A stretch of DNA of 64,000 nucleotides from a virus: positions 1 through 64,000 of IMG/VR virus record IMGVR_UViG_3300035180_002574, one strand, 5' to 3'. The notes below the pieces were generated by a model, which was given only the letters and a program-made list of their open reading frames with translations, was not told the origin of the DNA and searched no databases. The position numbers and the translations under genes were made by a program. Positions 1-63,456 of the stretch are shown one piece after another (position 1 is the stretch's first letter; the number at the start of each line of letters is the position of its first letter).

Positions 1-345
1 CCAAGCCGATTGGAACGTATACTTGGCTCGATTCTTCTTGCAGTAAACCATCGCTGCACCATAGATGCCAGCCTTAGTTCCCCAATTCTCGCAGCACCAT
101 TCATAACCGCCCGAGTTATAACCGTCCGGGGGAATCTTGCGCCAATCATCTCCAGGCTTCATGTTCTTCCTGGCTTCATTTGCAGCTTTATCCATCTCCT
201 CAAAGTGCTTGGGATATGGAATGTACTTGTTATGACTCAGTACCACAATATCGCCATCACGGGTTTCGCGTGAAAATTCTACGAACGCCGTGAGATCGTC
301 CTTGGGACCAGTCACAAACAAATCTTGATCGCAATGATTGGGCAT
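1..345 (-). CDS. YubB ferredoxin-like / DUF1281-like protein, runs off the window start
   Basis: Manual translation from ATG at 345: MPNHCDQDLFVTG...YEWCCENWGTK...YTFQSAW, matching the MPNWC / W..NWGTK / F.TAW pattern; absent from the ORF track because it is truncated. Confidence 0.7.
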   Translation of the reverse strand, partial: MPNHCDQDLFVTGPKDDLTAFVEFSRETRDGDIVVLSHNKYIPYPKHFEEMDKAANEARKNMKPGDDWRKIPPDGYNSGGYEWCCENWGTKAGIYGAAMVYCKKNRAKYTFQSAW

Positions 346-347
346 GT

Positions 348-605
<258 letters not shown>

Positions 606-669
606 GATTTGGCTTCAATCGCATCGAACAGGCTCGGTCAAGGCGTGAAGCTCTTTTGGATTGATCCTG

Positions 670-936
670 TCACCTACCGAAATGCTTATTTTGCATGAAG
701 TTCATGATCAGCCATCCGCCCATGAACATTCCGCAAACCAGATAGGGAGAAATCCCCATCGTATAGGAACCAACGTACAAAGCGATACTGAGAAGCAAAA
801 TGCTAGGAGTGGTCATCGATCTCTTCCTTTCCATAATCTTGCCCGACGTACATCCGCCCTTGGTGCGGAGAGAAAGTCCCTCGCTTTGCCTTCCACCATC
901 GATCTTCTCGATGAGAGCCGCAATCAGCGGATACAC
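670..936 (-). CDS. Small membrane protein
   Basis: Two hydrophobic segments in the C-terminal half. Confidence 0.5.
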   Translation of the reverse strand: MYPLIAALIEKIDGGRQSEGLSLRTKGGCTSGKIMERKRSMTTPSILLLSIALYVGSYTMGISPYLVCGMFMGGWLIMNFMQNKHFGR

Positions 937-1075
937 GCCCGTCTGAATCTCAGAATCCTCCCACGCATAACTATAGGCACGAAAGTCTTATTCACCTTGA
1001 CACAACCAACAATCGTGCCAAGAAAAGACTTCAACTCAGAAGTTACTGTGATGGTTATTTTATTGGAACCTCTGC

Positions 1076-1339
1076 TCAAGTAACCATCATGGTGGGCTTG
1101 TCATCACGATCCGTTTCTACCTCAATACACTGCGTTGCTCGCCTGATTGACATAGAGAAGTTCTCACACCCCATCAAACCATTTCGCGAATCGAAATGCT
1201 CATGAGCATAGACGAATGGACGGCTCAGATATACCTCGCCATCACGAATCATCGTAATGGTGACGGCAGAATAGATGCCCATTCCAGTCAGACGACCAAT
1301 CACACCACGAACGATCTCTTCCTCGCGAATGAGTCTCAT
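1076..1339 (-). CDS. Hypothetical protein
   Basis: ORF track; GGAG RBS upstream; minus-strand gene run. Confidence 0.5.
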   Translation of the reverse strand: MRLIREEEIVRGVIGRLTGMGIYSAVTITMIRDGEVYLSRPFVYAHEHFDSRNGLMGCENFSMSIRRATQCIEVETDRDDKPTMMVT

Positions 1340-1517
1340 GTTAGGCTCCTTTATAGTCGAGAGTCAGATTATCCTCGTGAACGACGAGCATGGAGACATA
1401 ACCCCTCATTGGACCATTGCCATCCATGCCCTCGCGAATGTATCTGCCCTCATCCAATTGCACAATGTGCATGGGCTGCGGAAACACGCGGTTCTTGACG
1501 TACACAGTCGAATCAAG

Positions 1518-2117
1518 TCAGTAATCGTAGCCGTTTCGCTCATCATAGCGGTTCTCCATGTATTCCATGTACCGCTCCTCTTCATTCCAGTGCTCGTAAG
1601 GACGCATCATTCGCGCCCCAAGATCCGAAAGCAATCCCTGGATCACTTCCAGACGCATATGGTCCTTCTCTTCACGAAGGCGAATCTCTTTCTCGAAATC
1701 GTCTCGAACCTTATCGCGAATGGCGCGAATCTGATCCTTGGTCAGATCGGGATTCTTCTGCAATGCCTGATATTCGGCATCGCCCTGGCGCTCAGCCAAC
1801 ATCTCACTAAGGTAATCAGCCTCATCCTCGCGCTCCTCGCGCGAACGCCACGAGCGATGCTCGATTTGAGTATGAATCTCATTCCATTCCGCCGCGAGCT
1901 TATTGATCATCTCCTCGCGGACCTGCGCCTTCATGGCTTTGACTTGAGCTTCGTACGAATCCTCAGAGGGACACTTGCAGTCTCCCTCGCATTCGCATTC
2001 GCATTCGATCTCGCCCTCATCCTCATGGTCCTTTTCCATTACCCAACCACGCGACATTGGAACCTCCACCATTGAATGATTGTTTGCGCAGCCCCGCTTA
2101 TCGCGCGCTGCGCTCAC
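1518..2117 (-). CDS. Acidic coiled-coil hypothetical protein (true start probably internal)
   Basis: E/R-rich helical composition; ECECEC micro-repeat. Confidence 0.6.
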   Translation of the reverse strand: MSAARDKRGCANNHSMVEVPMSRGWVMEKDHEDEGEIECECECEGDCKCPSEDSYEAQVKAMKAQVREEMINKLAAEWNEIHTQIEHRSWRSREEREDEADYLSEMLAERQGDAEYQALQKNPDLTKDQIRAIRDKVRDDFEKEIRLREEKDHMRLEVIQGLLSDLGARMMRPYEHWNEEERYMEYMENRYDERNGYDY

Positions 2118-2379
2118 GGATGAGAACGCCTGACATTATGCAATCGGCTCCACGTAATCAGATGGAGCCAATCGAGCATATCGAATCTTGCCAGGATCCT
2201 TCGGCGCATTCACACGAGTGTTCTCGGGGAATGCAGGCATCACTTTATCCTTTGGTCCCGAAGATCGCCATTCCAATGCCGGTGAACATTCCTCCACCGA
2301 CAACCAAGAATGGAATCAGATGTAGGATTACTTCCATGTCAGAACATGCTGGCGCACGGACGACATTGTGAACATATAT

Positions 2380-2724
2380 TTATTCTTCAGGTCCATCCCC
2401 AAAGACCGTGCGAAGATGCTCAAGCATCTGCTCAATATGCGGGCGAATAACCCATCCAGCCACATCATCGCATTCCGACCAGTTCTTAGCCCAATCCGTA
2501 TGTTGGAACCGCTCATCCGTCTCCGGGTGAAACCACTCGCCATTGATAAGAAGCGCCACCTCGAATGACTCGTAATCATCCGAAGATGCAAGCGTGTCGC
2601 GAGGAGACGAATAGTGAAATTCGCTAGCCTGAATGCTAGCAACCATTCCACCACCAAACTTCACGCCATAGAACCGACCAGGATTTCCAGGCACACGAAC
2701 CAGCTTGAACTCGCTCATGATCAT
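2380..2724 (-). CDS. Hypothetical phage protein (SIQASEFHYSSPR motif)
   Basis: AAGGA RBS before ATG at 2724/2718; globular composition. Confidence 0.6.
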   Translation of the reverse strand: MIMSEFKLVRVPGNPGRFYGVKFGGGMVASIQASEFHYSSPRDTLASSDDYESFEVALLINGEWFHPETDERFQHTDWAKNWSECDDVAGWVIRPHIEQMLEHLRTVFGDGPEE

Positions 2725-2909
2725 TATCCTTTGGTATCCTTTGGTATCCTTTGATGATATTGCGCACATATACCATATGGTAATCAATGCCAATGATACG
2801 AAGTTCCGACTCGCCCAGATCAATCTCTTCGCCTATTGATTGATGATCCGGGAATGCCAACTCATATTAGATCATGCTCTTGGCGACGTAGACGTACATG
2901 AGTGTTTCC

Positions 2910-3152
2910 TTACTTGTATTCGGTCATGGACGCCACTTCACGCAAGGCGTTGCGCGGGTCCTGCGTCCAATAGCGAATCCACAAGAGACCATGAACATCG
3001 GTGACGAGAAGAACCGCTCCATTGCCAATGGGGTCGTGATACCACCCCTCACCCCTGTACTTGAAGTGACCAAGATACCTTTCCAGCTCATCGACATTCC
3101 CACACACATGGAACCAATCACTGGACGGGAATCGCGCATGTTCATGCTCCAA
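2910..3152 (-). CDS. Hypothetical protein
   Basis: ORF track. Confidence 0.5.
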   Translation of the reverse strand: MEHEHARFPSSDWFHVCGNVDELERYLGHFKYRGEGWYHDPIGNGAVLLVTDVHGLLWIRYWTQDPRNALREVASMTEYK

Positions 3153-3211
3153 CCGGAATCGCTTGCATGTTTACTTTGCCACGGTTGGTAAAATCAACGT
3201 AGGCATACCCT

Positions 3212-3385
3212 TCACATCGACTCATGACGAGAGTATTGCACGCTACCGAAACTGCCGAAGTAGAGGGAGGTTTCGGGATCCCTGCAATGCTCCTGCGCCT
3301 CTTCCAAGGTCAGACCTGTCTTGATGACCTGATTCTCACCTTCGAAGAAGAAACAAATGATGCTATAGGTTACAGGTTCGCTCAT
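3212..3385 (-). CDS. Small phage hypothetical protein (IKTGLTLEEAQEHCRDPETS)
   Basis: Manual translation, 57 aa, GGAG RBS; below the ORF-track cutoff. Confidence 0.6.
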   Translation of the reverse strand: MSEPVTYSIICFFFEGENQVIKTGLTLEEAQEHCRDPETSLYFGSFGSVQYSRHESM

Positions 3386-3747
3386 TTTATTCTCCTAATA
3401 CTTGAGCTTCATCAGCCCCAGCGAATGGTGCAGGCTCTTACCATACCACAACACACCACCCCACTGACGCGCATCCCCCTGGGATTGGTTGCCTTGAGGA
3501 AATGATCATTCAGACTCGAACGAAAGGCTCGCACCGGCAACCCATCATCATGGATTATCAGATATTGAACAATCACTCATAGACAACAATCTCGTAATCC
3601 GCTCGCACGTCTCGATCCAGACGATCGTTCACATGCGCTGGCTCCACATATTCGAGAGCCAACGTAATGTATAACGAACCGTTCCCAGCCCGCCAGGCGC
3701 AGACACAAGCAAGCCTTCCAGGAACTTAGGAAATTGATCTGTGAAGT

Positions 3748-4131
3748 TTATCCTTTGGAATCTTCCGCCTCTTTGGATTCCTTGAGCAAGCGTTCGGCTC
3801 GCTCCATCCATGGATGGGAATATTCCCATGAGAGATTCTCGAAACCGCTCACGATTGCGTGACGCGAGATATCTTTGTCTACACACAGGGACCAAAGCCG
3901 CATGATTGCTGCCAATGACTTGACATCCACCGGACCTTCGCGCAAGAAACGGCGCGAATCGACCAACCAGATCTCTTGCAATCCAGAAGGCATTAGCATG
4001 AACTTGCGCACGGCTTCACGCAAGCTAAAGCCTTGCCGTCCCGCCAAGCTAGAACATAGGATCGCCGCCAGCTGAATCTCGTTCATGAGAAAAGATCCGA
4101 CGCTTTCTTCTCGAAGATCTGAGACAGGCAT
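3748..4131 (-). CDS. Hypothetical protein
   Basis: ORF track; GGGAGG RBS. Confidence 0.6.
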   Translation of the reverse strand: MPVSDLREESVGSFLMNEIQLAAILCSSLAGRQGFSLREAVRKFMLMPSGLQEIWLVDSRRFLREGPVDVKSLAAIMRLWSLCVDKDISRHAIVSGFENLSWEYSHPWMERAERLLKESKEAEDSKG

Positions 4132-4245
4132 ATTCGCCTCCCTTTGGTCATTTGATTCGGCGCAGTTTCAAGCCGCCGCCCGCTCAATTGCGTTCTTGAG
4201 CCGGAGAACACCAGCATCGTAGAAGATAGTGAGGCGAATATCAAG

Positions 4246-4509
4246 CTATCGCCTCTTTAGCAGTTGCTCTGGTATCCAAGCCCCGCGGGGACCACGTACG
4301 CAAGTGTCTATATACTTGCGCTTGTTCTTCTTGATCTTGCGAGCCGCGCTTTTCTTTTCCGTTGGTTGCGCCCCATGTGGCATCTTGTCGATCGATTGTC
4401 GATCGATGGAAGAGACGTGCGGATGCCGGCAACTCATCGTTTGCCGTCCTAGACACTGAACCATGGTGGGTTCGCATACATGAAGGAACCCAAAACCAAA
4501 TTTACTCAA
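4246..4509 (-). CDS. Small basic hypothetical protein (may start at ATG 4383, just after the repeat motif)
   Basis: ORF track; motif pair at 4385-4409 precedes ATG 4383. Confidence 0.4.
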   Translation of the reverse strand: MSKFGFGFLHVCEPTMVQCLGRQTMSCRHPHVSSIDRQSIDKMPHGAQPTEKKSAARKIKKNKRKYIDTCVRGPRGAWIPEQLLKRR

Positions 4510-4931
4510 TCATGTTATTGGCTCGGAGACTGAAGTGACTGCGCATTCCATGCTCATTCACGCCAATAATCAAGTGATCGAGCAACTGAAGATCCACATG
4601 CCTTGCCGCTTGCGCAACCCTCCGGGTAAGGATAATGTCGTTGCCCGAGGGATGGTTGTGCGCGAGAATGAACCCGCGCGCACCCATTAGCAAAATTGGG
4701 CGAAGCACACCACGCAGCAGACTCCGAACCAATGGCGACAATGGTAACGCCCAGGGCTCGATTCCTGGCATCCAATCCAATGGCGAGCAAATGCTCGCGA
4801 TCGGGCGTACCAATCAGCTCATGCACCAATGCCGCTGATGCTTCGGAGTCGTGCAGGTTCGCGCTTGGAATCATAACAGAACCATCACGAACCAGTTGGA
4901 CCTTCTGAATCGGAACGCGATATCCGCTCAT
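4502..4931 (-). pseudogene. radC: RadC-like JAB-domain gene, frameshifted and internally deleted
   Basis: DREHLLAIGLDARNR in one frame; LAHNHPSG and LLDHLIIG in another; the usual PSxxD segment is missing. Confidence 0.85.
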
Positions 4932-4937
4932 GTGCCC

Positions 4938-5078
4938 TCACTTGAGTTTGAGAATCGCCTCGCGCATCTTCGGATCCATGTGAGGATTCGTTTGCGCCGC
5001 TTCCTTCATGGCTTCCAATGCCTTCTTGCGATTGGCATTGATATTCTCGATGATTGCCCTGCGCTCGTCTGCGGTCAT
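4938..5078 (-). CDS. 46-aa helical hypothetical protein
   Basis: Manual translation MTADERRAIIENINANRKKALE; AGAGG RBS right after the motif copy at 5088. Confidence 0.55.
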   Translation of the reverse strand: MTADERRAIIENINANRKKALEAMKEAAQTNPHMDPKMREAILKLK

Positions 5079-5321
5079 TCAACCTCTTTGTCGATCGATG
5101 GGAACCGGATATGCCACCTTGCGATTGCTCTTATAGCACGCAAGTTGCGTGTCGCTATTCCAACCCGTGCGGGTGAATAGCTCTCCGCTCACGTCCACCA
5201 CTTCGGGCAACGACTTGTAATGGTCGTAATCCCTACACTCCACTTCGATGATGTTCTCGCCTTCGATGCTGACGTAAGACAACACCGCGATGAGTTGCGT
5301 GGCTTTGGCTTGCATGTTCAT
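5079..5321 (-). CDS. Hypothetical protein
   Basis: ORF track; ATGA overlap with the upstream gene. Confidence 0.65.
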   Translation of the reverse strand: MNMQAKATQLIAVLSYVSIEGENIIEVECRDYDHYKSLPEVVDVSGELFTRTGWNSDTQLACYKSNRKVAYPVPIDRQRG

Positions 5322-5647
5322 GCCCCCGGCTGATCGATCGATGGGCTCGATGCCATCCGATTCTTGGCGATATCCGCAAGCTGACCCACGTACTTGAGTG
5401 ACATGGTTCTAGCGCGAGCGAGATGCCGTCCGCTCAGATGCTTTCCTTCCAAGATCCATCGGGCATAATACGAACCCAAGCTCGCATCCGCGCCCGAGAA
5501 TCCTCGACCATTGGAATGTCTGGTGGTTTTCGTGGCTTGCTCATCCGCGGTTTGACACGCATAGATGGCAAGGATCGCACGCTCCACCGCATCGTCCCGT
5601 TGCATCAACAACCATTGAATGTATGCAGGATCGCTCTTGTCAATCAT
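5318..5647 (-). CDS. Conserved-type phage hypothetical protein (QTADEQ...NGRGFSGADA)
   Basis: Recognisable motif pattern of a common large-phage hypothetical family; GAGG RBS. Confidence 0.7.
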   Translation of the reverse strand: MIDKSDPAYIQWLLMQRDDAVERAILAIYACQTADEQATKTTRHSNGRGFSGADASLGSYYARWILEGKHLSGRHLARARTMSLKYVGQLADIAKNRMASSPSIDQPGA

Positions 5648-5734
5648 GCTCTCACCCTCGCTTGTCGATCGATGGGTCCGTTCGTAGCAGGGATTCGCTT
5701 TGCATTCACCAGAGGTTACTAAAGCGTTTCCCAG

Positions 5735-5812
5735 ATCGCCTAGTAGGAATCGAACCTACCTCGTCTCCATGCTCTCAGACATGGGCAGCCACCCAGGGTA
5801 TTCTCTAGACGA
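5735..5812 (-). ncRNA. tRNA-like RNA 1 (intact acceptor and T arms; non-canonical D and anticodon arms)
   Basis: Acceptor TCGTCTA/TAGGCGA; T arm GTAGG-TTCGATT-CCTAC; stem CCATG/CATGG with an 8-nt loop. Confidence 0.7.
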
Positions 5813-5880
5813 AACTCCCCGTTCACAACACTCAAGGTTTGTCACGAAATCAAGCACGGGGACACACTCCGAAATCGCGG

Positions 5881-5952
5881 ATCGCCTAGCAGGACTCGAA
5901 CCTGCACCTACCTACGCCAATGCGCTCGCTCTACCAGTTGAGCTATAGGCGA
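5881..5952 (-). ncRNA. tRNA-like RNA 2 (canonical acceptor, D and T arms; anticodon stem does not pair canonically)
   Basis: TCGCCTA-TA-GCTC-AACTGGTA-GAGC...GCAGG-TTCGAGT-CCTGC-TAGGCGA. Confidence 0.8.
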
Positions 5953-6214
5953 AACATCCCCTATGGGGAATCAGCTATGCTGTCTCCGTTCAACCACGGA
6001 TGGGCGCGAATCCTTATGGGCGATTCATTGCTGCCCTGGATTCGCCAGCGAATCACACCCGCCTCTACTTATACTTTGCTTTGTATAAGGAACCGTTCGG
6101 TTCGTTTTGCTTGCTTTTCAAGAGAGGCTTGTCGATCGATGGGAACCGGGGAACCGACCGAAGCCGGCTCCCCAATCCCCTAACCGATCACTGAACGAAT
6201 CTCGCTTCGCTCGA

Positions 6215-6625
6215 TTACTTCTTGGCAGCCTTCTCCGCCTCGATGCGGGCACGAAGACCCACACCGCCGCCCTTGCCCTTGCCGATGAGGAACTTCGAGC
6301 TGGGACGCTCCTGCGTCCCGTCCTCCGCGATCTCGCCCTGCGCATTGTCGCGAATGTAGCTGTGGATGCGATCCGAGAGAACCTTGTGGTTCTCGGGCTG
6401 TGCATTCATCTTGACCAGCGTCATCGTGATGAGCGCCGGAACATTCATCTTGACCAGCGCCGGATATGCATCAAAGACCGCATCCACCGCATTCGCGATG
6501 GTCTGAGTCTCCACCTCACGCTCCGAGGCATACTTGACCAGCTCCGCCTCAAACCGAGAACAGGTCTCCGCGAAGTTGAGAGAACCGTCCGCATACCGAA
6601 CCAGGAAGGGAACCACATTGCTCAT
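6215..6625 (-). CDS. Hypothetical protein, first gene after a promoter module
   Basis: ORF track; AAGG RBS; strongly GC3-biased codons. Confidence 0.75.
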   Translation of the reverse strand: MSNVVPFLVRYADGSLNFAETCSRFEAELVKYASEREVETQTIANAVDAVFDAYPALVKMNVPALITMTLVKMNAQPENHKVLSDRIHSYIRDNAQGEIAEDGTQERPSSKFLIGKGKGGGVGLRARIEAEKAAKK

Positions 6626-7219
6626 TGTTATACCTTACTTTCCGAATGCCCTTTGGGGCTTCTATTACCACGAACCATTGGAACCTTTCGGGTTCCAAGA
6701 TACTTCCCATTCCAACCCCGGAAACCGGGAGAAGGTGAGTCGTATCTAACGTATCCAAGCTGCTTGGCACCTTCAATGATGCCCCGCCTTGTCGATCGAT
6801 GGAATGCGTCAACTGCCCGCTTTGTCTTCCCAAGATGCCAGAGAGCGTTGTCGCCCTCCCAAGTTTCAAGTCTCTTGTCGATCGATGGAGCCTTGCCGCC
6901 AACGTTGCGCCGCGTCATTCGCTCACCGTCGCATTCCCGCGCCGCATTGTAGATCGATGGAATCCATCGACTTGCATCGCGCCGCGCGCCTTCACGCTCG
7001 CTTTGCTCCCTTCGCCCGCATTGTCGATCGATGGACATTCATCGTCAACGGAATCGGGAATCGAGCGAACCGTCAACCAGCGTTCACAACGCGCACCGCT
7101 TGCGTTTCCGCTACACCGTGTCGCGTCGCTTGCTGCGATTGTGTCTCATATTGTCGATCGATGGTAACCCGGCGCCCGTTGCATGTAAGGTATCGCGCGC
7201 GCGCAAAAGGATTACCCTC

Positions 7220-7240
7220 TATTAGCACGTCCCGCGCCAC
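7220..7240 (-). promoter_or_regulatory. sigma54-type -24/-12 promoter P1
   Basis: TGGCGCGGGACGTGCTAATA, GG-N10-GC. Confidence 0.7.
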
Positions 7241-7287
7241 GCCACATTACAATCTCACTGGAATCATAAACCTGGTATGTTGTTCGC

Positions 7288-7308
7288 TATTAGCACGTTC
7301 CGTGCCAA
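7288..7308 (-). promoter_or_regulatory. sigma54-type promoter P2
   Basis: TTGGCACGGAACGTGCTAATA. Confidence 0.8.
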
Positions 7309-7409
7309 GCACGATTAGCAAAACCCACATGCACCTACATCCGGGTAGAAAAATACAATATCCCTATAAAAACCCATAGGGGAGGGAAATGGGTAAATGC
7401 GTCCGGCGC

Positions 7410-7439
7410 AAAAATCCGCCCCGGAAAGGGGTGGATTTT
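7410..7439 (-). terminator. Intrinsic terminator hairpin
   Basis: AAAATCCACCCC-TTTCC-GGGGCGGATTTTT on the minus strand, downstream of the gene ending at 7551. Confidence 0.75.
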
Positions 7440-7471
7440 GCGTTATCCGTTGGTATGTTTGGGATTGGGTC

Positions 7472-7498
7472 CCCCACCAGCCATCATGGCTGATGGGG
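7472..7498. other. Strong hairpin in the 3' region of the 7551 gene
   Basis: CCCCA-CCAGCCAT-C-ATGGCTGA-TGGGG. Confidence 0.55.
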
Positions 7499-7550
7499 AA
7501 TGAACCGCGCGTGAATCCAAGCGTCCGAAAACGATTCGGATGCCGCCACC

Positions 7551-7976
7551 CTACGTGGGAAGGGTCCAGATACCGTTGCGCTTCCTAACACCAAGCGTAC
7601 CAGCGATGGTGTCGATGCTTTTCGCCAAGCCGACCGAAGTCTTGTAACCAAAGGATTCGCGCATTGCCGTCACTTGCTCGATGACGTCGAGGCGACTCAT
7701 GGCGCCTTTGGATAGGACTTGACCCACACAGGCGCGAATGGAACCGCCATTGAATGGACGCCCACGAGGGCGACTGGATTCGGTCTCGAACAACTCCACT
7801 TCATCAGAGTTGATCTTTTCGGCAAGCTCATCCAGCTTTGCCTTCTCTTCCTCGCTCAGATTTTCCTGAATCTCCTCGATGCGCTTGTCGATCGACGGGC
7901 GCATGATCGTGTGCCCGTGTCGAAGGAGGGCGAGAACGAGGGAATCGCTGGGATTATCGAGGACGATGACTCGCAC
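7551..7976 (-). CDS. Hypothetical protein, possible C-terminal winged-helix domain
   Basis: ORF track; GGAG RBS; helical C-terminus ending in a beta-hairpin (VRKRNGIWTL). Confidence 0.65.
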   Translation of the reverse strand: MRVIVLDNPSDSLVLALLRHGHTIMRPSIDKRIEEIQENLSEEEKAKLDELAEKINSDEVELFETESSRPRGRPFNGGSIRACVGQVLSKGAMSRLDVIEQVTAMRESFGYKTSVGLAKSIDTIAGTLGVRKRNGIWTLPT

Positions 7977-8037
7977 GTCTCCACCTCTTTACCTTGCTGG
8001 CAGAGTGACCAATCACGAGAACTCTCATGCGCATTAG

Positions 8038-8117
8038 TTCGTCTAATGGGAATCGAACCCATATTTCCGATTGTGATGTCGGCGTCCTTCCGCAAGGCTC
8101 TCTTAGACGATAGACGA
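8038..8117 (-). ncRNA. tRNA-like RNA 3 (enlarged D loop; 4-bp anticodon stem with an 8-nt loop)
   Basis: TCGTCTA/TAGACGA; ATGGG-TTCGATT-CCCAT; CCGA-CATCACAA-TCGG. Confidence 0.75.
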
Positions 8118-8140
8118 AACTCAGATATTCCGAACTTGTA

Positions 8141-8560
8141 TCAGACGGAGATCTTCTCCGTCTTTCGCCACTTTTCGAGCGCGTTCTTGGTGGCGCGCAC
8201 CGTCGCGGTCGAACCATGACCACGCCGGGTGACGAATCCCCCGCGAGCCAGCTTGGTGCAGGCGCTCGACACGTCGGATTCACTGTAGGCGTTCTTGAAC
8301 CGACCGTTCAAGTGATCGGTGAGATCCTGCGTGCTCACACCCTCGGCTCCGAATCGGAGAACGGCGAGCAGGGTCAGCTCGCATCGCTTCTTGAGCCCCA
8401 GGCTCACCTCGATGCGGTCACCCCTGCGAACCAGCTTGGAATCATGGCGATTGAACGTGACGCTCTTGCGGAAACGGATGCTCATGCGGAACCTTCGCTT
8501 TCCGACCCCACAACATGGGGTCAAGGGGTCATTCCAGAACTCTTCGATTGCTTGCCTCAT
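8141..8560 (-). CDS. Winged-helix DNA-binding protein
   Basis: LLAVLRFGAEGVSTQDLTDHL...SESDVSSACTKLARGGFVTRR is a typical wHTH pattern. Confidence 0.75.
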   Translation of the reverse strand: MRQAIEEFWNDPLTPCCGVGKRRFRMSIRFRKSVTFNRHDSKLVRRGDRIEVSLGLKKRCELTLLAVLRFGAEGVSTQDLTDHLNGRFKNAYSESDVSSACTKLARGGFVTRRGHGSTATVRATKNALEKWRKTEKISV

Positions 8561-8638
8561 GCTTGTCGATCGATGGAACCGAGGACCGGGCTCGATTGCC
8601 CGGTCCCCAATCCCAATCAGATCACGGAACGAACATGT

Positions 8639-8845
8639 TCAGGGCTTACCCGCCCATGCAAGAATGGCGGATAGCGTATCCATGCTCACCTGCACAGATT
8701 GACCATTCTGCTCGATGCGGAGAACCTTTGCGTTCTTCTGAGTCGAAAGGGGATGAGGATTGCTCATCACCACTTCGACCATCGGAGTGTCCTCGTTCCC
8801 GCCCGTGAACAAACACTGCTCGCCCAGCGGCTTGAAAACCTGCAT
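8639..8845 (-). CDS. Hypothetical protein
   Basis: ORF track; GGAG RBS. Confidence 0.6.
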   Translation of the reverse strand: MQVFKPLGEQCLFTGGNEDTPMVEVVMSNPHPLSTQKNAKVLRIEQNGQSVQVSMDTLSAILAWAGKP

Positions 8846-8933
8846 TGTCAGACTCCGAGTTTGAAGGTTGTAAACGTGGATAGGGGCGATGTTGATCGAT
8901 GGGAACCTTGACGATCACTTACTCGATTCTTGG

Positions 8934-9119
8934 TCAATCACCATCCGCATCCATGGATGCTTCGATGGCATCACGCTCGGCGGCGTGCCGATCGCCCTTG
9001 CGCTCCTTGTGCGGACCACCAGACTTGCATCTGCGGAGATCTTCGTAGGTATCGAAGCTGCGCCCCTTGATCTCTTTCACCTTGGAATTACCGCCGATCT
9101 TTTTGAACGACTTACCCAT
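8934..9119 (-). CDS. Small basic hypothetical protein
   Basis: ORF track; GAGG RBS. Confidence 0.6.
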   Translation of the reverse strand: MGKSFKKIGGNSKVKEIKGRSFDTYEDLRRCKSGGPHKERKGDRHAAERDAIEASMDADGD

Positions 9120-9155
9120 GACCCTCGTTCCTCCGCTTGTCGATTCGCAACTCTT

Positions 9156-9386
9156 CTACCCATTCGTAACGATGTGCCTCGTCATTCCAGACGACAAGGA
9201 GACGGGAACCCAGGTTCCCTTGACGGGCTTGCGCAGGTTGGCGAACATGGGCGGAAGGGGCTTGAGAATCGCAAACCCTCGGCAATAGGCGTGCTGCGAG
9301 TGCGGAGCCGCATTGGACTTCTGTCCGCACTTGGAACACACGCACGGTTCCACCTTGACGCCCGCCGACTTCTTGCTCTTCGCCAT
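9156..9386 (-). CDS. Small Cys/His-rich (zinc-finger-like) protein
   Basis: Start reassigned to ATG 9386 after motif plus GAGG; CVCSKC...H..C. Confidence 0.6.
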   Translation of the reverse strand: MAKSKKSAGVKVEPCVCSKCGQKSNAAPHSQHAYCRGFAILKPLPPMFANLRKPVKGTWVPVSLSSGMTRHIVTNG

Positions 9387-9515
9387 CTTGAACCTCTTGT
9401 CGATTGATGGATCACGCTTGGCGCGATGATTACCATTATAACTGTCGAACCACACCTTTCCATACCAAAACCTTTTCGGTATGGAATATGAGTTATGAGT
9501 TTCGTTCGCGGGCGT

Positions 9516-10148
9516 TCAGCCGCGCGAAAACTTGGCGGCGTCTTGCTTGACCTTGACTCCGAACCCCAAGCCACCACTGGTGCCAACCTTGACGGTCTTG
9601 TGGACCGCCATGCGGGGAGCCCGCAGAAGTCGCTTCATGGACTCATCGCGTGAGACGATTCGCACGGGATTCAGCTTCTCGGGACAGAGAAGCCAAGTGA
9701 TGCTTCCGTGCCAATTGGGCGCGCCGTCAACGAGCTGACGGTCGACCCACCGCTCCGCATCTTGGGGCATGTCGAAGTCGGCAATCAACTCTTTCATGTC
9801 ACCAGAATCGGTGACATGAAACTGGACTCTGCCCAGCTCGTCGAGAATCTGAGCAACGTATGCTTTGGGCTCCTTCTCTTCCTTGGGGAGAAGGAATCGC
9901 TCAGCCTTAGATTGATCCTGAAGCATGATATGAGACCAGACCGCAGACTGAATCTCAGTCAAGGCAGGAGTCGGCATCAGAGCACCACTGTCCACCATGT
10001 GAACAATGGGCGACGTCAGAGGAGCCAACTCCCCGGTCGTGAGGTAAGCGCGATGCGCTTCGATGAAGCCGATTGCCGACTTCGCGGTGGACAACTTGCG
10101 CAAGAACCCCTTAGGGGTCATCTTGCGTTCTTTCTTGGCTTCCGTCAT
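9516..10148 (-). CDS. Hypothetical protein, first gene after a promoter module
   Basis: Start reassigned to ATG 10148 after motif 10163 plus GGAG. Confidence 0.75.
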   Translation of the reverse strand: MTEAKKERKMTPKGFLRKLSTAKSAIGFIEAHRAYLTTGELAPLTSPIVHMVDSGALMPTPALTEIQSAVWSHIMLQDQSKAERFLLPKEEKEPKAYVAQILDELGRVQFHVTDSGDMKELIADFDMPQDAERWVDRQLVDGAPNWHGSITWLLCPEKLNPVRIVSRDESMKRLLRAPRMAVHKTVKVGTSGGLGFGVKVKQDAAKFSRG

Positions 10149-10344
10149 AGCTTCGCTCCACCTTGCCGATCGATGGAATGCCGTCAAACCATTCGACGGC
10201 GCATCCCGTTTCGCTTTCCTGCTTTCGGTGCGCATTGTCGATCGATGGAACCACACCGCGTCTCACAATGTCGCACAATGAATCACGCCCCGTCGTTTCG
10301 CGTTTTCGCTCGGGGCATTCTCGCCACCGCTTGTCGATCGATGG

Positions 10345-10421
10345 AAGGCATCGCCGCTTGTAAGGCATCGCCGCTTGTAAGGCATCGCCGCTTGTAAGGC
10401 ATCGCCGCTTGTAAGGCATCC
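10345..10421. repeat. Tandem 17-mer (AAGGCATCGCCGCTTGT) x4 plus a partial copy
   Basis: Units start at 10345, 10362, 10379 and 10396. Confidence 0.95.
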
Positions 10422-10461
10422 TACATTATCCTACCTTGGTATCTATAAACTTGCGGATCTC

Positions 10462-10482
10462 TATTAGCAAACTTGGTGCCAA
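10462..10482 (-). promoter_or_regulatory. sigma54-type promoter P3
   Basis: TTGGCACCAAGTTTGCTAATA. Confidence 0.8.
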
Positions 10483-10531
10483 CTTCCCCTGCGCTCAATA
10501 TCCTACATTGTGTGTGAATGTAATAAAATGG

Positions 10532-10568
10532 ATGACTTGTCATCCCAAGCATGACTTGTCATCCCAAG
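10532..10568. repeat. 19-nt tandem duplication ATGACTTGTCATCCCAAG(C)
   Basis: Two adjacent copies. Confidence 0.9.
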
Positions 10569-10619
10569 TGAGATATGTCGGGGCGAGTAATCAAAGGTGG
10601 AAGGTGATCCGCGGAGCGT

Positions 10620-10640
10620 TATTAGCAAACGCCGTGCCAC
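10620..10640 (-). promoter_or_regulatory. sigma54-type promoter P4
   Basis: GTGGCACGGCGTTTGCTAATA, near-perfect consensus. Confidence 0.85.
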
Positions 10641-10744
10641 CTACCTGCACACATAAAAACGCAGGGTGTCGTACCTTTCCTTACTTTTAGGGTCTTTCTT
10701 ACCTTTCCCTTCCCTTCCGCCCCGCTTGCACTTGCCCAAGACAT

Positions 10745-10789
10745 AGCCTCGGCGGCTCCTAGATCATTGCTAGCGAAACCGCCGAGGCT
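10745..10789. other. 11-bp GC-rich inverted repeat (hairpin without a U-tract)
   Basis: AGCCTCGGCGG...CCGCCGAGGCT. Confidence 0.6.
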
Positions 10790-10971
10790 CCCACGCCTTT
10801 CTCAGTCACATAATATATATGTTCCCCTCCGCGCCCACGTGCCAATCGGGAGCAAAAGAGAGGCGACCGCTAGGGCGTCCTTTGCGGGCATCACCCGCAC
10901 GTCAATACGGTGGATCTTGCATTATTGCCCCGCAATATCTAGGTGAGGTTACTTGTCGATCGATGGGATGG

Positions 10972-11298
10972 CTAGTTGAGCTTGCTGCCCAGGAAGGGGA
11001 CGGGATCCGACGACGGATGCGCCTGCGCCGTGGAGACGAGCTTGTAGACGCGCACGGCGTCGGCGACGCACTCACCCTTGATGATCTTGATCTCGACTTC
11101 GTTCCTGGCGTTGCTGATGGCGGCGCTGTAGGCGGCGCGGATGTTCGGGGGCAACTGCGGCTCGAACTTGTCGAAGACGCTGGCGACAAGTTCGAGACGC
11201 CGCTCCTCGAACGCGTTCATGAGCGGACGCAACTCGGAGCCCGCCTGTTGGCACGCTTCGTAGATTTCCTTGAGAACCTTGGAGACGTTCATGTTCAT
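10972..11298 (-). CDS. Hypothetical protein
   Basis: Start reassigned to ATG 11298 (GGAGG RBS after motif 11313). Confidence 0.7.
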   Translation of the reverse strand: MNMNVSKVLKEIYEACQQAGSELRPLMNAFEERRLELVASVFDKFEPQLPPNIRAAYSAAISNARNEVEIKIIKGECVADAVRVYKLVSTAQAHPSSDPVPFLGSKLN

Positions 11299-11332
11299 AC
11301 CTCCGAACTTCTGTGTCGATCGCTGGTAACTT

Positions 11333-11584
11333 CTAGAGGAGAACGGTCTCCTGGTTGGGGTGCGCGGGACTGGATGAATAGACCTTATCCAGACGATAGC
11401 CGTGCGCCTCGCACCACTTCTCGATAGACTGGAACGTGACCACGTAACCATGGAAGGGCTCGTCACCCTTGAACAGCAGAACCTCGTGACGCATGAGTTT
11501 GGGCGCGCCTCCCTTGGGCGCCGCCATAAACTCGGTTTCGGCGTCGAAGATGGAACGGAACGTGATTTCGACCATTGATGACAC
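11333..11584 (-). CDS. Hypothetical protein
   Basis: ORF track; GAGGT RBS. Confidence 0.7.
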   Translation of the reverse strand: MSSMVEITFRSIFDAETEFMAAPKGGAPKLMRHEVLLFKGDEPFHGYVVTFQSIEKWCEAHGYRLDKVYSSSPAHPNQETVLL

Positions 11585-11612
11585 CTCTTACAACACCCCA
11601 CTATCTCATGCG

Positions 11613-11873
11613 CTAGACGTCCTTGAGAGGCGCTTGATACTGGTCCTTGTTCCACTTGCGCAGGGACGCGTCTTCGATGGCTTCCTTCGACTCCTCGATG
11701 CCTGCGCCGGTGCGGTCGCGAAACTCCTTGATGCGCTGGATCTTGTTCTCGTAGACGGGAAACCTGCTACCCTTGGCGCAGGCATCGCGCGGCGGGGGAC
11801 CGAGCTTGTCGTCCTTGACCAGCTCGTCTGCGATAGCATCCCATTCGCTCCTGTCGATGAACATCTTGAACAT
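11613..11873 (-). CDS. Ribosomal protein L7/L12 C-terminal-domain-like protein
   Basis: NKIQRIKEFRDRTGAGIEESKEAIE matches the K..IK..R..TG.GL.EAK..VE helix-turn-helix of the bL12 CTD; the EF-Ts N-terminal domain is similar. Confidence 0.6.
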   Translation of the reverse strand: MFKMFIDRSEWDAIADELVKDDKLGPPPRDACAKGSRFPVYENKIQRIKEFRDRTGAGIEESKEAIEDASLRKWNKDQYQAPLKDV

Positions 11874-11921
11874 TAGTACCTCTTACTGTGTTGTCGATCG
11901 GTTGTCGATCGATGGAAGACT

Positions 11922-12131
11922 TTAGAAGACCGCCCGCTCCTCCACCTTGTAGGAGGTGATGACGACCTCGACCTTGGCGTCACCCACCACGCTGCCACCC
12001 TTGGCATGGTTCTTGGTCATGGCGAAGTGAGTGGCGGCGCCAATCGAGGCGAAGCCCTTGATGTCACGCCGAGTCAACTTGCCCGTGGCGGTATCGAACG
12101 TGAGGGCGGTAACGACGAACTTGGTGCCCAT
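11922..12131 (-). CDS. Hypothetical protein
   Basis: Start reassigned to ATG 12131 (GGAGG RBS). Confidence 0.7.
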   Translation of the reverse strand: MGTKFVVTALTFDTATGKLTRRDIKGFASIGAATHFAMTKNHAKGGSVVGDAKVEVVITSYKVEERAVF

Positions 12132-12397
12132 GTATGTTACCTCCGACTTGAGGCTTGACTTCAATAGAAGGATGGCAGCTTTCACGCCTTAGCTGCCCTG
12201 TAGCGCCTTTGCGACCCGGACGTTTTCCGTCAGTGCGCTATCAGCATCGCTCACATTCTCGCCTTTCATTGTCGATCGATGGCAGCCGTCGCTTTTTTTG
12301 TTTTCGTTCCCTGCCCTCGCCTTTCATTGTCGATCGATGGTGGACCGCCGCCGCACGTTCCTTATTATACGCGGCGACGACCACACCACACGCCCTT

Positions 12398-12418
12398 TAT
12401 TAGCAACGCGCGTACCAA
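12398..12418 (-). promoter_or_regulatory. sigma54-type promoter P5
   Basis: TTGGTACGCGCGTTGCTAATA. Confidence 0.75.
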
Positions 12419-12525
12419 CCACAATGTAATCAGGAATATATCGGGGGAAACGTGCCAGATAAGCGTCGGGCGCCCTAAACCACCTTCACTCACCGTGTGG
12501 ACAGATGCTTACATGTAGGATAAAC

Positions 12526-12564
12526 GACGAAAGCCCGCTCGCTTTTCAGCGGCGGGCTTTCGTC
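12526..12564 (-). terminator. Terminator-like hairpin
   Basis: 13-bp stem GACGAAAGCCCGC/GCGGGCTTTCGTC just after the stop at 12573. Confidence 0.75.
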
Positions 12565-12572
12565 CGTCAGTA

Positions 12573-13217
12573 TCAGTAGGCGTTGCTTGCGTCGTCGAGC
12601 TGGCGCGCCTGCGCCAGCAGCTTGTTCGCGAGCGTCACGTTACCCTCCTTGTCCGCCTTGCTGGCGGCGTCGAGCAGGACGCGCTGCTTCGCCTTCATGT
12701 CGGCGACCAGGCGCCGAGCGGGCGCGGGCATACCGGCAACGTAACCGGCAACCGTGGGCGAGAGACGCGGCGCCTTCCCCTCGCCCGGGTTTGGATCGAG
12801 GGTGAGACGGGCGCGGCGAGTCGCCGCCGCGAGCGCGGTCCCCAGGTCGTCGACCTTGAAGCCGCAGCACTGGAGCAGAAGAATGGTGTCGTGACGCACT
12901 TCGTGCGGATTCTTGAACGTGACGGGCTTCCGCTTCAGGTTGACAGCGGGCGCCCCGGTCACTGGATCGATGGCTTGACGAACGCCAACCATCGACGCGA
13001 GCCTGAGAAACTCCACCGCGTCGTTCGTCTCGTTCAAATCGAGCACCACGCCCACCGTCTCATGCGGAATGACCTTGGCGCTCGCCGCGCCGGCAACGCG
13101 CTCCACCTTGGGAGCCTTGACCGCCTTGACCGTTCGCGACGTATCGTCCAGCTTCGGGTCTTCGACCAAGCTGGAAACGGTGCCAGTCGCATCGGAGAGG
13201 AGAGAGGAAAAGTCCAT
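12573..13217 (-). CDS. Ala-rich hypothetical protein, first gene of the GC-rich block
   Basis: ORF track; GAGG RBS; very high GC3. Confidence 0.75.
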   Translation of the reverse strand: MDFSSLLSDATGTVSSLVEDPKLDDTSRTVKAVKAPKVERVAGAASAKVIPHETVGVVLDLNETNDAVEFLRLASMVGVRQAIDPVTGAPAVNLKRKPVTFKNPHEVRHDTILLLQCCGFKVDDLGTALAAATRRARLTLDPNPGEGKAPRLSPTVAGYVAGMPAPARRLVADMKAKQRVLLDAASKADKEGNVTLANKLLAQARQLDDASNAY

Positions 13218-13462
13218 TGAAAACCTCTTAGGGTTTGGGTTCGGGCGGAGCTTGCGCCCCGCGATGAATTCCCTTGCCTTTCGCGCCGTCCGCCAGTAGT
13301 AGGGGCGAGAACTTTGTCTCGCTGCACCTTGGAATCACCTTGCCGATCGATGGTACCTGGTTTCCCCCTCCCACTTCGGTTCGTTCCCTTTTTCGTTCCC
13401 TGTCTCAGCCTTCCATTGCCGATCGATGGGAGACCGGATTCCAGTCGGGACGGAACCGGCGC

Positions 13463-13483
13463 TATTAGCACACCTTATGCCAG
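13463..13483 (-). promoter_or_regulatory. sigma54-type promoter P6
   Basis: CTGGCATAAGGTGTGCTAATA. Confidence 0.75.
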
Positions 13484-13528
13484 CGGTAGGGTGATGTAGG
13501 ATAGGCTCCACGACACTCGCTCGACCGC

Positions 13529-13549
13529 TATTAGCAACTACCATGCCAC
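13529..13549 (-). promoter_or_regulatory. sigma54-type promoter P7
   Basis: GTGGCATGGTAGTTGCTAATA. Confidence 0.8.
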
Positions 13550-13561
13550 CTACATTGTAGG
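13549..13561. promoter_or_regulatory. Dyad box CCTACATTGTAGG abutting the -24 element of P7
   Basis: Perfect 6-bp inverted repeat; half-sites recur in the other modules. Confidence 0.55.
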
Positions 13562-14039
13562 CTAAAAAGACCGAAACCACAGATGCCAAACATTCCAATC
13601 GGAAAATAAAAATCTTATACTACATGTAAGATAAAAAATTACTTTATACTTCATGTAGTGTGATGTAATAATAAAAAGTATTTATACGACATCGTAGGAG
13701 CTATAAGAGAAGGTGGTAGAGGTAACCAATAAGCGCCCAATGGGCGAAAAGGTAGGCGATGTGGGTGGAGGTGGTAGATGTGTGCCTGGCAAACAGGAGC
13801 ATCTGTGGCTTATATTGATTAAAAGTTACTAAAAAACCATAAAACCACCACCCACCTACCTCTGCACACCATTTCAAATCGCCCCTTATACCTCTAGAAA
13901 GTTAGTCAATAGAACCCAATTAGAGTCCCTATAATGATTCAAATGGGACTTATTACCACTTCTCCCCACCAAATGACACCTTTATAATTATGTTTTTTAA
14001 CCAAACATCTTGTGTAATTAGAAATAATTTGCTTTTTAG

Positions 14040-15744
14040 GTAAAAATATTAAAAATATTAATCGTTTTATTTTCCGAATTAGTTTAGAGAATATGATATT
14101 GAGGCGTCCACATTTTTGAGATGATTGAAAGGCATAAGTTAGTGAGGCTTATCTGGTTTAGTGAAGCTTATCTGGTTCTTAGGTTGAAGAGAAGTTAAAC
14201 GGAATATTAATTTGTACGGTATTTTGGAAATGCATAACATATTTTATTTTACAATATTTACAATTGATCCAGATGCCATAGACATTATCGGTGATATTTT
14301 GTAGTTAGGGAGCCAGATTATAATTGTTCAGGTTTCATGAGAATATGAGATAAGTTTTCATTTTATGTTTAAGTTCTGGGGGTGTCATATTAAGAAATTT
14401 ATTAGCGTGATCATTATCTTTACCGAAGAAGGAGATTTTGTATAACCGAGATCTTCAGCCAGAGAGATGTTGGATATGGTGATAATATATTCCACGAATC
14501 ATTTGGGTCATCAATTTTGTGGGGGAGAGGGGTTACAATTGTAGCAATTGATAATCATGGGGCGGGTGGCGTCATGCAAGGATTTTGGCAATAAAGATTT
14601 TTGCAATACGGGAAGCCAGCAAGGAACTTTCTTTAGGTAAGTTATAAATTTTATTAATATGAATTTTATTAAGGGGATATGATCGAGGGCTATATTATGG
14701 AGGTTGTAGAAAAGCGATGGAGAGGCAGGAGCCATCTTGTTCTCCGATGGAGATGGCTAACCATTGATTTGTGTTTTCAATTGATTTGTGTTTTCATGGG
14801 ATATTGGACCTGACAATATAGACGGCTTCGAGATCTTCATTGCGGGGCATTTGGAATATCATTTAGGCAGAACCAGCGAGGAATAGATTTGGGAATCGAG
14901 GAAGATCATATGAATGGGAGGAGTGGACAGGAGATTGAAGGAGATTGAAGGAGATTGAGGCGGGAGATATCGAGGGATTGTTTTTGAAAATTAAGACGAA
15001 TTTCGATAACATTTGATTTGGTTGTCATTTATTGGGGAGATGAGGTGGGGGTTTCCACATTTTTGGCAATGGAGCATTTGATTTTATTGCAAAGCCGGCA
15101 TTGAATATTCATGAGGGCGCGAGATAAGTTTTGATTTTTGTGGATTTTATCCGGGGACCAAGTTCGGGCGTTGTGTTAGTTTAACTTTATTATTGGGCGG
15201 GGACCATAGGAGAGCGGAGGGGGTTTAAGCAAATTGATAAATTGGTCCCGGGGGTTTTGGTTCCATAATAAACGACGATCTTTTGAAAAGATCGGAGGGT
15301 GGATTGATGATTTGTGGTGTCGCAAGTATATTTGGCAATAATAATAAATGATTTCCCATGTAATCAGTCTTGCAGATTGTGGAATTATTTTATTACAAAA
15401 CCAGCAGGTGATTTGCTTGGGCGGAGCATTTAGATCATAGGAAAGGGATTAATTTCTTTAATTTATTGGAAATTTGATCTTTATTGAGATGGGGGCAAGA
15501 TTATTTTTTCCGATTTGATTATGTGTGGAGATAATTAGCTGATTGGAATGCGGGAGAAATCCGAGGTATAAATTTTTGAAATAAAAATCGGATATTTGTT
15601 CGGGATGATTGCGATCATAGAAATAGGCATTATAGGCAGAGGAGCAGTCATTGCATATTGGCATGGAGAATGATTGGTGGCATCTCCATGTTGATTGCGG
15701 ACCAAATTAATTTCTTTATTGCAGAGCCAACAAGCGGGAATCAT
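14040..15744 (-). pseudogene. Chain of decayed CxxC / C-terminal-FS family genes
   Basis: Relic ends KHKMKTYLIFS* (14335), LLPFI* (14906), TKIKTYLAPS* (15109), NKLKKLIPFL* (15435); relic starts CYNCN, CRLCNK, CWFCNK, CWLCNK; linked by ATGA overlaps. Confidence 0.75.
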
Positions 15745-63413: not shown

Positions 63414-63456
63414 AATTCACCCATGAGAATTAAGTCCTGTACTTAAGATAAAATGT

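Follow-up and report, generated by a model that had tools for sequence, protein, structure and literature searches.

Phage-specific, one-stranded regulatory words at gene borders are a known kind of element. Promoters of T7, T3, and SP6 use a word that is uniform within a genome and differs between lineages. Late promoters of T4 (TATAAATA) are short −10-type elements without a −35 element and are read by gp55, a small diverged sigma factor, on the host polymerase. Cluster A stoperators and operators, bound by L5 gp71 and the TipsytheTRex repressor, are asymmetric words of the 13-bp class that occur in 20–35 copies in short intergenic spaces (PMC9283540, PMC6550527). Cluster K start-associated sequences (SASs) are 13-bp, asymmetric, and one-stranded, contain the Shine-Dalgarno (SD) core AGGAG, and lie 3–7 bp from the start (PMC3203893). 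Bacillus phage 0305phi8-36 has 21-bp promoter candidates, and its promoter-sized spaces thin out from one genome end (PMC2147016). Promoter-bearing intergenic repeats are found in halovirus HF2, and T4-type phages carry promoter-early stem-loop mobile cassettes (PMC8707807). Here we describe a directional 14-nt element (the 14-mer) in a 64,000-nucleotide stretch of viral DNA (the window), which is the first 64 kb of the 181,177-base IMG/VR record IMGVR_UViG_3300035180_002574. A literature search found no paper describing this word, the GC-rich genome arm in which it lies, or a megaphage motif of this kind.

The 14-mer has 26 matches at up to two mismatches in the window (15 exact, seven with one mismatch, and four with two). 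All are on the minus strand and span positions 4385–13429. Dinucleotide-preserving shuffles gave a mean of 0.45 matches and a maximum of 4. The full record holds 26 reverse and 0 forward copies and none beyond 13,429; an earlier note on this DNA had reported these counts, the single strand, and the confinement below 13.43 kb correctly, and the contig-wide count and orientation test that it proposed gave one strand and a non-uniform distribution limited to the first 13.5 kb. Two truncated tandem copies are included in the 26 (4385–4398 beside 4396–4409, and 11891–11904 beside 11902–11915), both 11-nt slippage duplicates of the 3′ part of the 14-mer. Three copies lie within open reading frames (ORFs), and the rest are mostly in intergenic spaces or ORF-less leaders. 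With 26 copies in 9 kb, there is about one site per 0.4 kb. The signal precedes almost every gene and small RNA of one genome arm, which is GC-rich in most lineages. Comparison with relatives indicates that a clade of phage-G-like megaphages shares a bipartite, strand-specific signal at gene junctions, which this lineage spells as the 14-mer. Tentatively, it may act on DNA as a compact phage-specific promoter or initiator.

Relatives were reached through the product of a conserved 136-aa early gene (6215–6625, minus strand). Homologues of this protein and of the product of a conserved 210-aa early gene (9516–10148, minus strand; 66 homologues) occur on many contigs, including contigs of 340–498 kb. 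Other searches led nowhere: two exact 14-mers 58–88 nt apart had no match in viral_contigs or metagenome_contigs, a DNA scan with a single 14-mer gave only single-copy matches (one record had two) that were taken for chance, and the 214-aa first gene as query found no relative in viral_contigs. Eleven distinct related loci were compared, with proteins 25–72% identical to those of the window. All of them except the most distant, L144/L145, have one-stranded arrays in matching settings: immediately behind a stop codon, some 25 nt ahead of the following start codon, and in leaders that lack ORFs and follow sigma54-type boxes.

Each genome spells the word uniformly, but lineages differ in its spelling at the same orthologous junctions. 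Locus L125, with proteins 30–71% identical to those of the window, has 29 copies of the window's identical word and 0 on the other strand. There are 17 copies of CCCATCG[G/T]GCAGT in L127, 24 of CCCATCGACGAACA in L132, 18 of TCCCAGCGACTAA in L141, and 34 of CCCATCGAA[C/T]AAC (at most two mismatches) in L133, with a similar number in the near-identical L134. L135, L136, L137, and L143 have 23–41 copies of CTCCCATTCAC per 20 kb. L140, which is AT-rich and has no GC-rich block, carries TCCCATC-N4-TAACGG 15 times forward and 0 times reverse, and its copies differ from one another in the four central bases. Alignment on CCCA gives a family consensus in two parts, TCCCATC(G) and (A/G)AC, the latter often with GG after it, separated by three or four free or lineage-specific bases; in summary it reads TCCCATC(G)-N3-(A/G)AC. 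In the sequence logo, conservation is limited to about 16 nt, positions −4 to +12, and between relatives the tail of the motif diverges more than the core.

At several junctions the copy is kept and its spelling has changed in concert with the rest of the genome's copies. These are the copies ahead of the 210-aa and 136-aa genes and the one at the beginning of the ORF aligned with 7551–7976, where L125 and L127 carry a copy of their own word inside the ORF and the window has copy 7885–7898. The earlier note's general proposal, a directional phage-specific cis-signal that coordinates the module, is strengthened by this conserved junction placement with concerted sequence change, and several of its specifics fail. 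Within L133, two subtypes differ in placement: ORF-less leaders hold 8 of the 13 AATAAC copies versus 2 of the 15 AACAAC copies, by our count. New in this comparison are the link of the spellings CCCATCGCCMAACGG and CTCCCATTCAC to the bipartite family consensus and the AT-rich member with a free spacer (L140). Also new are the coupling of the motif to a GC step and to sigma54-type boxes, a whole-genome density gradient, and a failed covariation test for a winged-helix candidate reader.

The window's word contains the palindrome TCGATCGA, and the overlapping sites GATC, CGATCG, ATCGAT, and TCGA in its core had suggested a methylation-dependent switch. The window's word does hold these overlapping palindromes. 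They are found only in the window and the L125 lineage, however; at the same junctions, the tails in seven other lineages are not palindromic. The palindromic core is thus, judging from these alignments, an accident of one lineage, and a methylation switch, left with no comparative support, is extremely improbable.

Distances to neighbouring genes are regular. Among single copies in the window, a stop codon typically lies 5–14 nt before the copy, an SD sequence follows, and an ATG begins 9–28 nt after the copy. Across loci, the distance from stop codon to motif is often 0–6 nt, an ATG most often follows the A of CCCA at about 24–27 nt, with the SD in between, and the modal distance from motif end to ATG is 12–21 nt. 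The SD can begin directly behind a motif copy. Such geometry, about 25 nt upstream of start codons, could suit a translation-start signal, that is, an RNA motif that recruits or tunes ribosomes for the next gene. The motif also shares with SASs an asymmetric, one-stranded form, proximity to gene starts, and restriction to the non-structural half or arm (PMC3203893), and the stretch behind it has less structure than control regions. The SAS analogy drawn in the earlier note nevertheless fails: the motif has no SD core (no GGAG) and is followed by a separate SD, and copies are also found ahead of tRNA-like RNAs and in leader clusters that have no ORF. Because copies occur in these last two settings, the signal appears to serve transcription units and not translation, and a role in translation start is very improbable. 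Pairing of the CUCCC core with the SD in an anti-SD hairpin was also considered, and the stems are too short.

Six boxes with the sigma54 consensus (TGGCAY-N5-TTGCT, GG-N10-GC) lie on the minus strand of the window, with starts at 13548, 13482, 12417, 10639, 10481, and 7307. Boxes that fit the −24/−12 pattern (TGGCAC-N5-TTGCW, GG-N10-GC) number six in the window and are many in every relative. Each box or box pair is followed after 37–127 nt by two to five motif copies in an ORF-less leader and then by a gene, as had been noted from the sequence. Two boxes (13533–13548 and 13467–13482) lie at the GC step, 37–103 nt upstream of the first copy of leader cluster 1 (13340–13429), which consists of 13416–13429 and 13340–13353, is of the GGCAA variant, has copies 76 nt apart, and is ahead of a gene starting at 13217. 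The box at 12402–12417 is 61 nt upstream of leader cluster 2 (12269–12340), where two exact copies 58 nt apart precede gene 11922–12185. Boxes at 10624–10639 and 10466–10481 are upstream of leader cluster 3 (10163–10344), with copies at 10331–10344, 10235–10248, and 10163–10176, the last of which is 14 nt ahead of the ATG of the 210-aa gene. The box at 7292–7307 is 127 nt upstream of leader cluster 4 (6789–7164), with copies at 7151–7164, 7021–7034, 6947–6960, 6875–6888, and 6789–6802, and this cluster precedes the 136-aa gene. All four clusters are on the minus strand, and the three GGCAA variants of the 14-mer are all in leader clusters.

In the window and its relatives, the distance from the last box of a cluster to the next motif copy is usually 45–60 nt, and the first copy is about 35–45 nt into the predicted transcript of each box. 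Copies abut sigma54-type boxes in L141 only, where three copies begin roughly at the point at which such a box would initiate transcription; the first copies in the window are 37–127 nt downstream. Spacings of 76, 72, 74, and 72 nt recur between copies of the window's clusters, as the earlier note had seen, but spacings of 58, 86, 96, and 130 nt also occur, and relatives have 48 to 148 nt. Fixed helical phasing of about seven turns was therefore rejected.

The boxes themselves vary among lineages. In L133, L135, L136, and L137 the box is a palindrome, TGGCAY-N5-TTGCA, 3–4 nt, TGCAA-N5-RTGCCA, with the sigma54 consensus on both strands (for example L135 3303–3345, 3410–3450, and 7825–7865). Boxes of the window lineage are one-sided and end in TTGCTAATAG, and in L132 they are sometimes direct repeats 30 nt apart. 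Palindromic boxes are odd for a promoter, and a dimeric protein site would also fit them. An AT-island box within GC runs (GATACCTTACATG-like, or TATAAT at 12360) is present on the minus strand at 7170–7215 and 12345–12385 and is kept at the same place, between the sigma54-type box and the cluster's first copy, in L125, L127, L130, and L132. A perfect 17-nt tandem repeat of 4.5 units (10345–10420) lies immediately upstream, on the minus strand, of copy 10331–10344 in the leader of the 210-aa gene, and Logan contigs break there.

Copies outside the clusters are also on the minus strand. A junction copy with its 11-nt truncated tandem copy (11891–11915) is 6 nt after a stop codon, with the SD and ATG of gene 11613–11873 next. 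A degenerate junction copy with two mismatches (11313–11326) has an ATG 14 nt on. The exact copy at 10953–10966 is 5 nt after a stop codon and has no ORF start behind it. The junction copy at 9397–9410 (one mismatch) has an SD immediately behind it and an ATG 10 nt on, and a degenerate one at 8889–8902 (two mismatches) precedes gene 8639–8845. An exact copy at 8563–8576 follows just after a strong hairpin without a U-run and is 2 nt from the first ATG of the winged-helix ORF. The copy at 7885–7898 (one mismatch) is within N-terminal codons of ORF 7551–7976. The exact copy at 6129–6142 has a hairpin directly before it and two tRNA-like RNAs downstream. An exact junction copy at 5662–5675 is 14 nt from the ATG of gene 5318–5647. 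Two single copies overlap the last codons of the upstream gene, as the note had stated: a degenerate copy (5331–5344) in gene 5318–5647, 9 nt from the ATG of 5079–5321, and an exact copy (5088–5101) in gene 5079–5321, 9 nt from the next ATG. The final copy of the array in the window is an exact copy with an 11-nt truncated tandem copy (4385–4409).

Transfer RNA (tRNA)-like RNAs lie among the copies. On the minus strand of the window they are at 5879–5952, about 5735–5820, and 8037–8110; in L133 at 9885–9970 and 14297–14388; and in L141 near 7949, 9947, and 11908. Only window 5879–5952 is called by ARAGORN or Rfam, and its anticodon loop is odd. The tRNA-like RNAs of L133 occupy precisely the interval from one motif copy to the next. 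In both L133 and L141, the 3′ acceptor strand continues without a gap into the next copy's CCCA, and the CCA of the motif coincides with the expected tRNA CCA end in two of five cases.

A rival reading has the motif recognised in nascent or finished polycistronic RNA made from the sigma54-type boxes. The motif would be either a cleavage or end-protection site that releases single-gene messenger RNAs and tRNA-like RNAs, or a nut/boxA-like loading site that makes the polymerase termination-resistant over a 60-kb unit. Besides the abutting tRNA-like ends, its co-orientation with transcription, its place exactly between cistrons, and its position early in each predicted transcript agree with this. 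Hairpins without a U-run stand immediately before some copies, and the length of the motif matches boxA or ops. The AACAA 3′ half in some lineages presumably resembles boxA. However, cleavage at the copies inside ORFs or last codons would remove stop codons, and cleavage at tandem leader copies would give only 50–130-nt fragments. No nuclease or RNA-binding protein was identified. Rfam gave only a tRNA-like gene around the motif, the logo has no flanking conservation, and hairpins upstream of copies are not enriched overall (at −18 kcal or lower, 4.6% versus 4.3%). The same three results make a structured RNA or ribozyme improbable, and punctuation or loading at the RNA level is itself unlikely.

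The array lies in a part of the record with its own base composition. Bases 1–13,600 have 48–56% GC and the remaining 168 kb 32–39%; the rest of the record is that of a phage-G-like megaphage, with a CheckV completeness of 42%. An assembly chimera at the GC step was rejected. Independent Logan contigs bridge the step without one difference (X1 10391–14445, X2 12857–13888, and X3 14357–15034), and four runs, each from a different study (sediment, microbial mat), contain both compositions at similar depth. No RNA run was among those listed as containing the stretch. Because independent assemblies bridge the step and depth is similar on both sides, the GC-rich block belongs to the phage genome. 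Plausible genes of the block are all on the minus strand, like the motif, and are small, with no Pfam family. Searches of block proteins against Pfam and PHROGs were near blank, with a weak sub-threshold bL12-CTD match and two families of unknown function. We presume that the arm with the motif is the early one because it has many small genes.

A complete relative shows the same arrangement at genome scale. G001 (480,838 bases, CheckV complete) carries its 10-mer in 48 exact copies, every one forward and 0 reverse, with 45 of them between 419,980 and 478,494 and three at 9–38 kb. After the GC step, motif density per 10 kb falls through 26, 14, 6, and 3, and GC over the array goes from 57% down to 48% against a background of 39–45%. 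The largest GC rise, the sigma54-type boxes ahead of the array, and the first copy lie within about 150 nt in seven of seven loci that include the AT-rich flank. Members of the clade share the GC step (34–45% up to 57–64%), which fades within about 60 kb downstream. It is at 13,450–13,650 in the window, ~7150 in L133, ~3450 in L135, ~400 in L136, ~3850 in L137, ~5600 in L141, ~4450 in L143, and 420–480 kb in G001. In the more distant relatives L140 and L144, the 210-aa gene and the motif family are present and the GC-rich block is absent. In window 1–4384 (48–50% GC), minus-strand genes continue, but there is no motif copy and no box; this motif-free part matches the fading of the array in G001. 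It holds an (AGAC)n array of about 27 units (401–507), which encodes a CLSV repeat in minus-strand ORF 348–605.

A motif density and GC content that both decay from a sharp boundary might also point to a DNA-end or recombination signal, either a Chi-like word that would protect or recombine DNA entering at the arm boundary or a shared junction for swapping early genes between phages. Known Chi words are G-rich, and the complementary strand of the motif is G-rich as well (GATGGGA). Chi words are 5–8 nt and independent of gene borders, however; the motif, at 13–16 nt, is far longer than any Chi, and it keeps to gene starts and stands at a fixed distance from sigma54-type boxes. As for exchange, 5 of 16 homology blocks between L135 and L137 start within 3 nt of a copy, where about 1% is expected for a random point. 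As with the T4-like cassettes that the earlier note named, homology blocks between relatives often begin exactly at a copy. Like T4-type cassettes and HF2 repeats, the words lie at the borders of small, fast-exchanged early genes; those elements are longer and carry host-type promoter elements, none of which are visible in the motif. The one clean indel between L133 and L134 is not bounded by copies on both sides. In these 99%-identical relatives (L133 16,597 versus L134 14,549–18,136), a 3.6-kb insertion begins 55 nt after a copy. We read genes as being replaced in units bounded by the word, with shuffling a consequence of a shared regulatory word and not its function; a recombination signal as such is very unlikely.

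One of the closest described parallels is with Cluster A stoperators. In both systems the sites are oriented with transcription and the word diverges between relatives; as in Cluster A, the motif would be read as two half-sites on one DNA face, by a reader that diverges with it. Here, too, an asymmetric site of the 13-bp class occurs in at least 20 copies (26 in 9 kb) in short intergenic spaces. Unlike in Cluster A, there is one copy per gene in one arm of a ~0.4–0.5-Mb phage, tandem clusters stand behind sigma54-type boxes, no repressor was identified, and a temperate lifestyle is not implied. The stoperator analogy of the earlier note remains a live rival, with the reservation that no site overlaps an early promoter as an operator in the window. 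In such a model a phage protein, probably a two-headed monomer, would bind the asymmetric duplex and halt host RNA polymerase coming from the sigma54-type boxes, either shutting the early arm off after its job or keeping the arm silent.

Several features fit a roadblock of this kind. Dozens of co-oriented copies of a 13–16-bp word in short intergenic spaces resemble the L5 and TipsytheTRex stoperators (PMC9283540). The two conserved boxes are separated by about one helical turn, and the bases between them are free, as seen in the four variable bases of L140. A tail more divergent than the core parallels the variable Stoperator domain, the clusters lie 45–60 nt downstream of each promoter-like box, and winged-helix genes are present in the GC-rich block. 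On the other side, sites locked to gene starts at this density are far more frequent than silencing needs. No L5-type repressor was identified, Pfam and PHROG searches of the GC-rich block proteins gave no repressor match, and the only winged-helix protein tested does not track the type of motif. The arm has no oppositely transcribed genes, so orientation that follows transcription cannot show itself there. We regard a roadblock or operator as doubtful, though a serious competitor.

The preferred reading is the compact promoter or initiator, which is favoured by one-per-gene placement, copies before RNA genes, tandem stacks, the density gradient, and concerted change. Strict one-strandedness, confinement, and compactness also speak for it, as do hairpins directly before some copies (for example 8576 and 6142) and the three L141 copies that begin roughly where a sigma54-type box would initiate transcription. 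We rank it first, the roadblock second, and RNA punctuation or antitermination loading third. In the proposed mechanism, box 1 (TCCCAT) would be a −10-type element, and transcription would start about 6–8 nt after it, at the C-purine step of box 2. As we read the alignments, a pyrimidine-purine step is almost always found in box 2, as far from box 1 as the start site of bacterial RNA polymerase would be. Under this model every small gene would have its own transcript, whose short leader of 10–30 nt would still contain the SD. Tandem clusters behind sigma54-type boxes would be stacked second-class promoters that boost the two conserved early genes. The reader may be a phage factor that retargets host RNA polymerase, like T4 gp55, or an unrecognised polymerase, and it would co-evolve with the word. 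Action at the DNA level, a start within the motif, and a phage factor as reader are all three inferred.

Known promoters resemble the motif in part. As with T7-group and 0305phi8-36 promoters, the word is uniform and phage-specific, is co-oriented with genes, may overlap the end of the upstream gene, has one conserved and one lineage-specific half, and falls in density from one genome end. Unlike them, it is shorter (13–16 nt), far denser, coexists with sigma54-type boxes, and comes with no detectable phage polymerase. As with T4 late promoters, a single short element stands before many genes, with a fitting arrangement of box 1, spacer, and start. The motif sequence is unrelated and C-rich, however, the arm is presumed early, and no gp55-like gene was identified. 

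A number of results weigh against a promoter. The start site must lie inside the motif, because the SD can begin directly behind it. The preferred 45–60 nt from the last sigma54-type box fits an element that acts on box-started transcripts or polymerases at least as well, and the promoter model leaves this fixed distance unexplained. No multisubunit or YonO-type polymerase, sigma54, AAA+ activator, or NusG was found in the window's contig, G001, or the partial relative G002. For polymerases of the phiKZ, AR9, or YonO kind, PF00623, PF00562, and PF05183 matched neither the window's contig nor the complete 481-kb relative, at a sensitivity that could miss very divergent enzymes. A T7-like polymerase (PF00940) was searched for in the window's contig only and gave no match, in a search whose control matched nowhere either. 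A crude regular expression for a DFDGD-type catalytic signature and one for a conserved T7-type active-site motif likewise found nothing in the window's contig or G001. The sigma70-family protein of these phages is an unlikely reader, as its regions 2 and 4 would expect a −35/−10 pair and the motif has no −35.

That protein is a 209-aa factor with regions 2 and 4 (PHROG 351), encoded at 63,300–63,930 on the minus strand in the AT-rich part of the window and at ~343.5 kb in G001. A use of box 1 as a −35-like element with TAnnnT downstream was set aside; the pair is seen by eye in AT-rich L140 and is absent in GC-rich lineages.

The earlier note had named the winged-helix protein at 8141–8560 (minus strand) as a candidate reader. 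Its predicted fold is indeed a winged helix, with best matches to SSV1 F-93, PadR, ArsR, MarR, and the ROQ domain. The protein shares 64% identity with its L127 orthologue, where the word differs, versus 29% with its L125 orthologue, where the word is the same. Because its similarity does not follow motif type, it appears to be a poor candidate for the specificity reader. The 210-aa gene is first behind a cluster of boxes and motifs in every lineage seen. Its product is 71% identical to that of the same-word locus versus 38–57% to others, and the 136-aa protein is about equidistant from four of the loci (54–60%). This possible tracking of the motif word by the 210-aa protein is only a hint. 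A model of the 210-aa protein (predicted local distance difference test score 80) gave only generic helical bundles with Foldseek and VIA-align (Z at most 6) and no match in the Atlas.

The word could be the recognition element of an undescribed expression machinery, a prospect we consider rather doubtful. This would be an unrecognised factor or polymerase that provides host-independent per-gene transcription, or a punctuation of early transcripts at gene borders. If so, an undescribed machinery would co-evolve with its word across a clade of ~0.4–0.5-Mb phages, tied to the GC-rich arm and the sigma54-type boxes, and in the punctuation form it would be a bacterial-virus counterpart of mitochondrial tRNA punctuation. 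To our knowledge, giant phages are known almost only from metagenomes, and the timing of their gene expression is a blank. The motif offers a sequence-level handle on this expression and defines the arm in any related contig. It yields a concrete prediction, RNA ends or protein binding at defined bases, and the differences between lineages are a natural covariation experiment for finding the reader. If the reader were a new transcription or RNA-processing factor, the motif would be a compact orthogonal expression signal.

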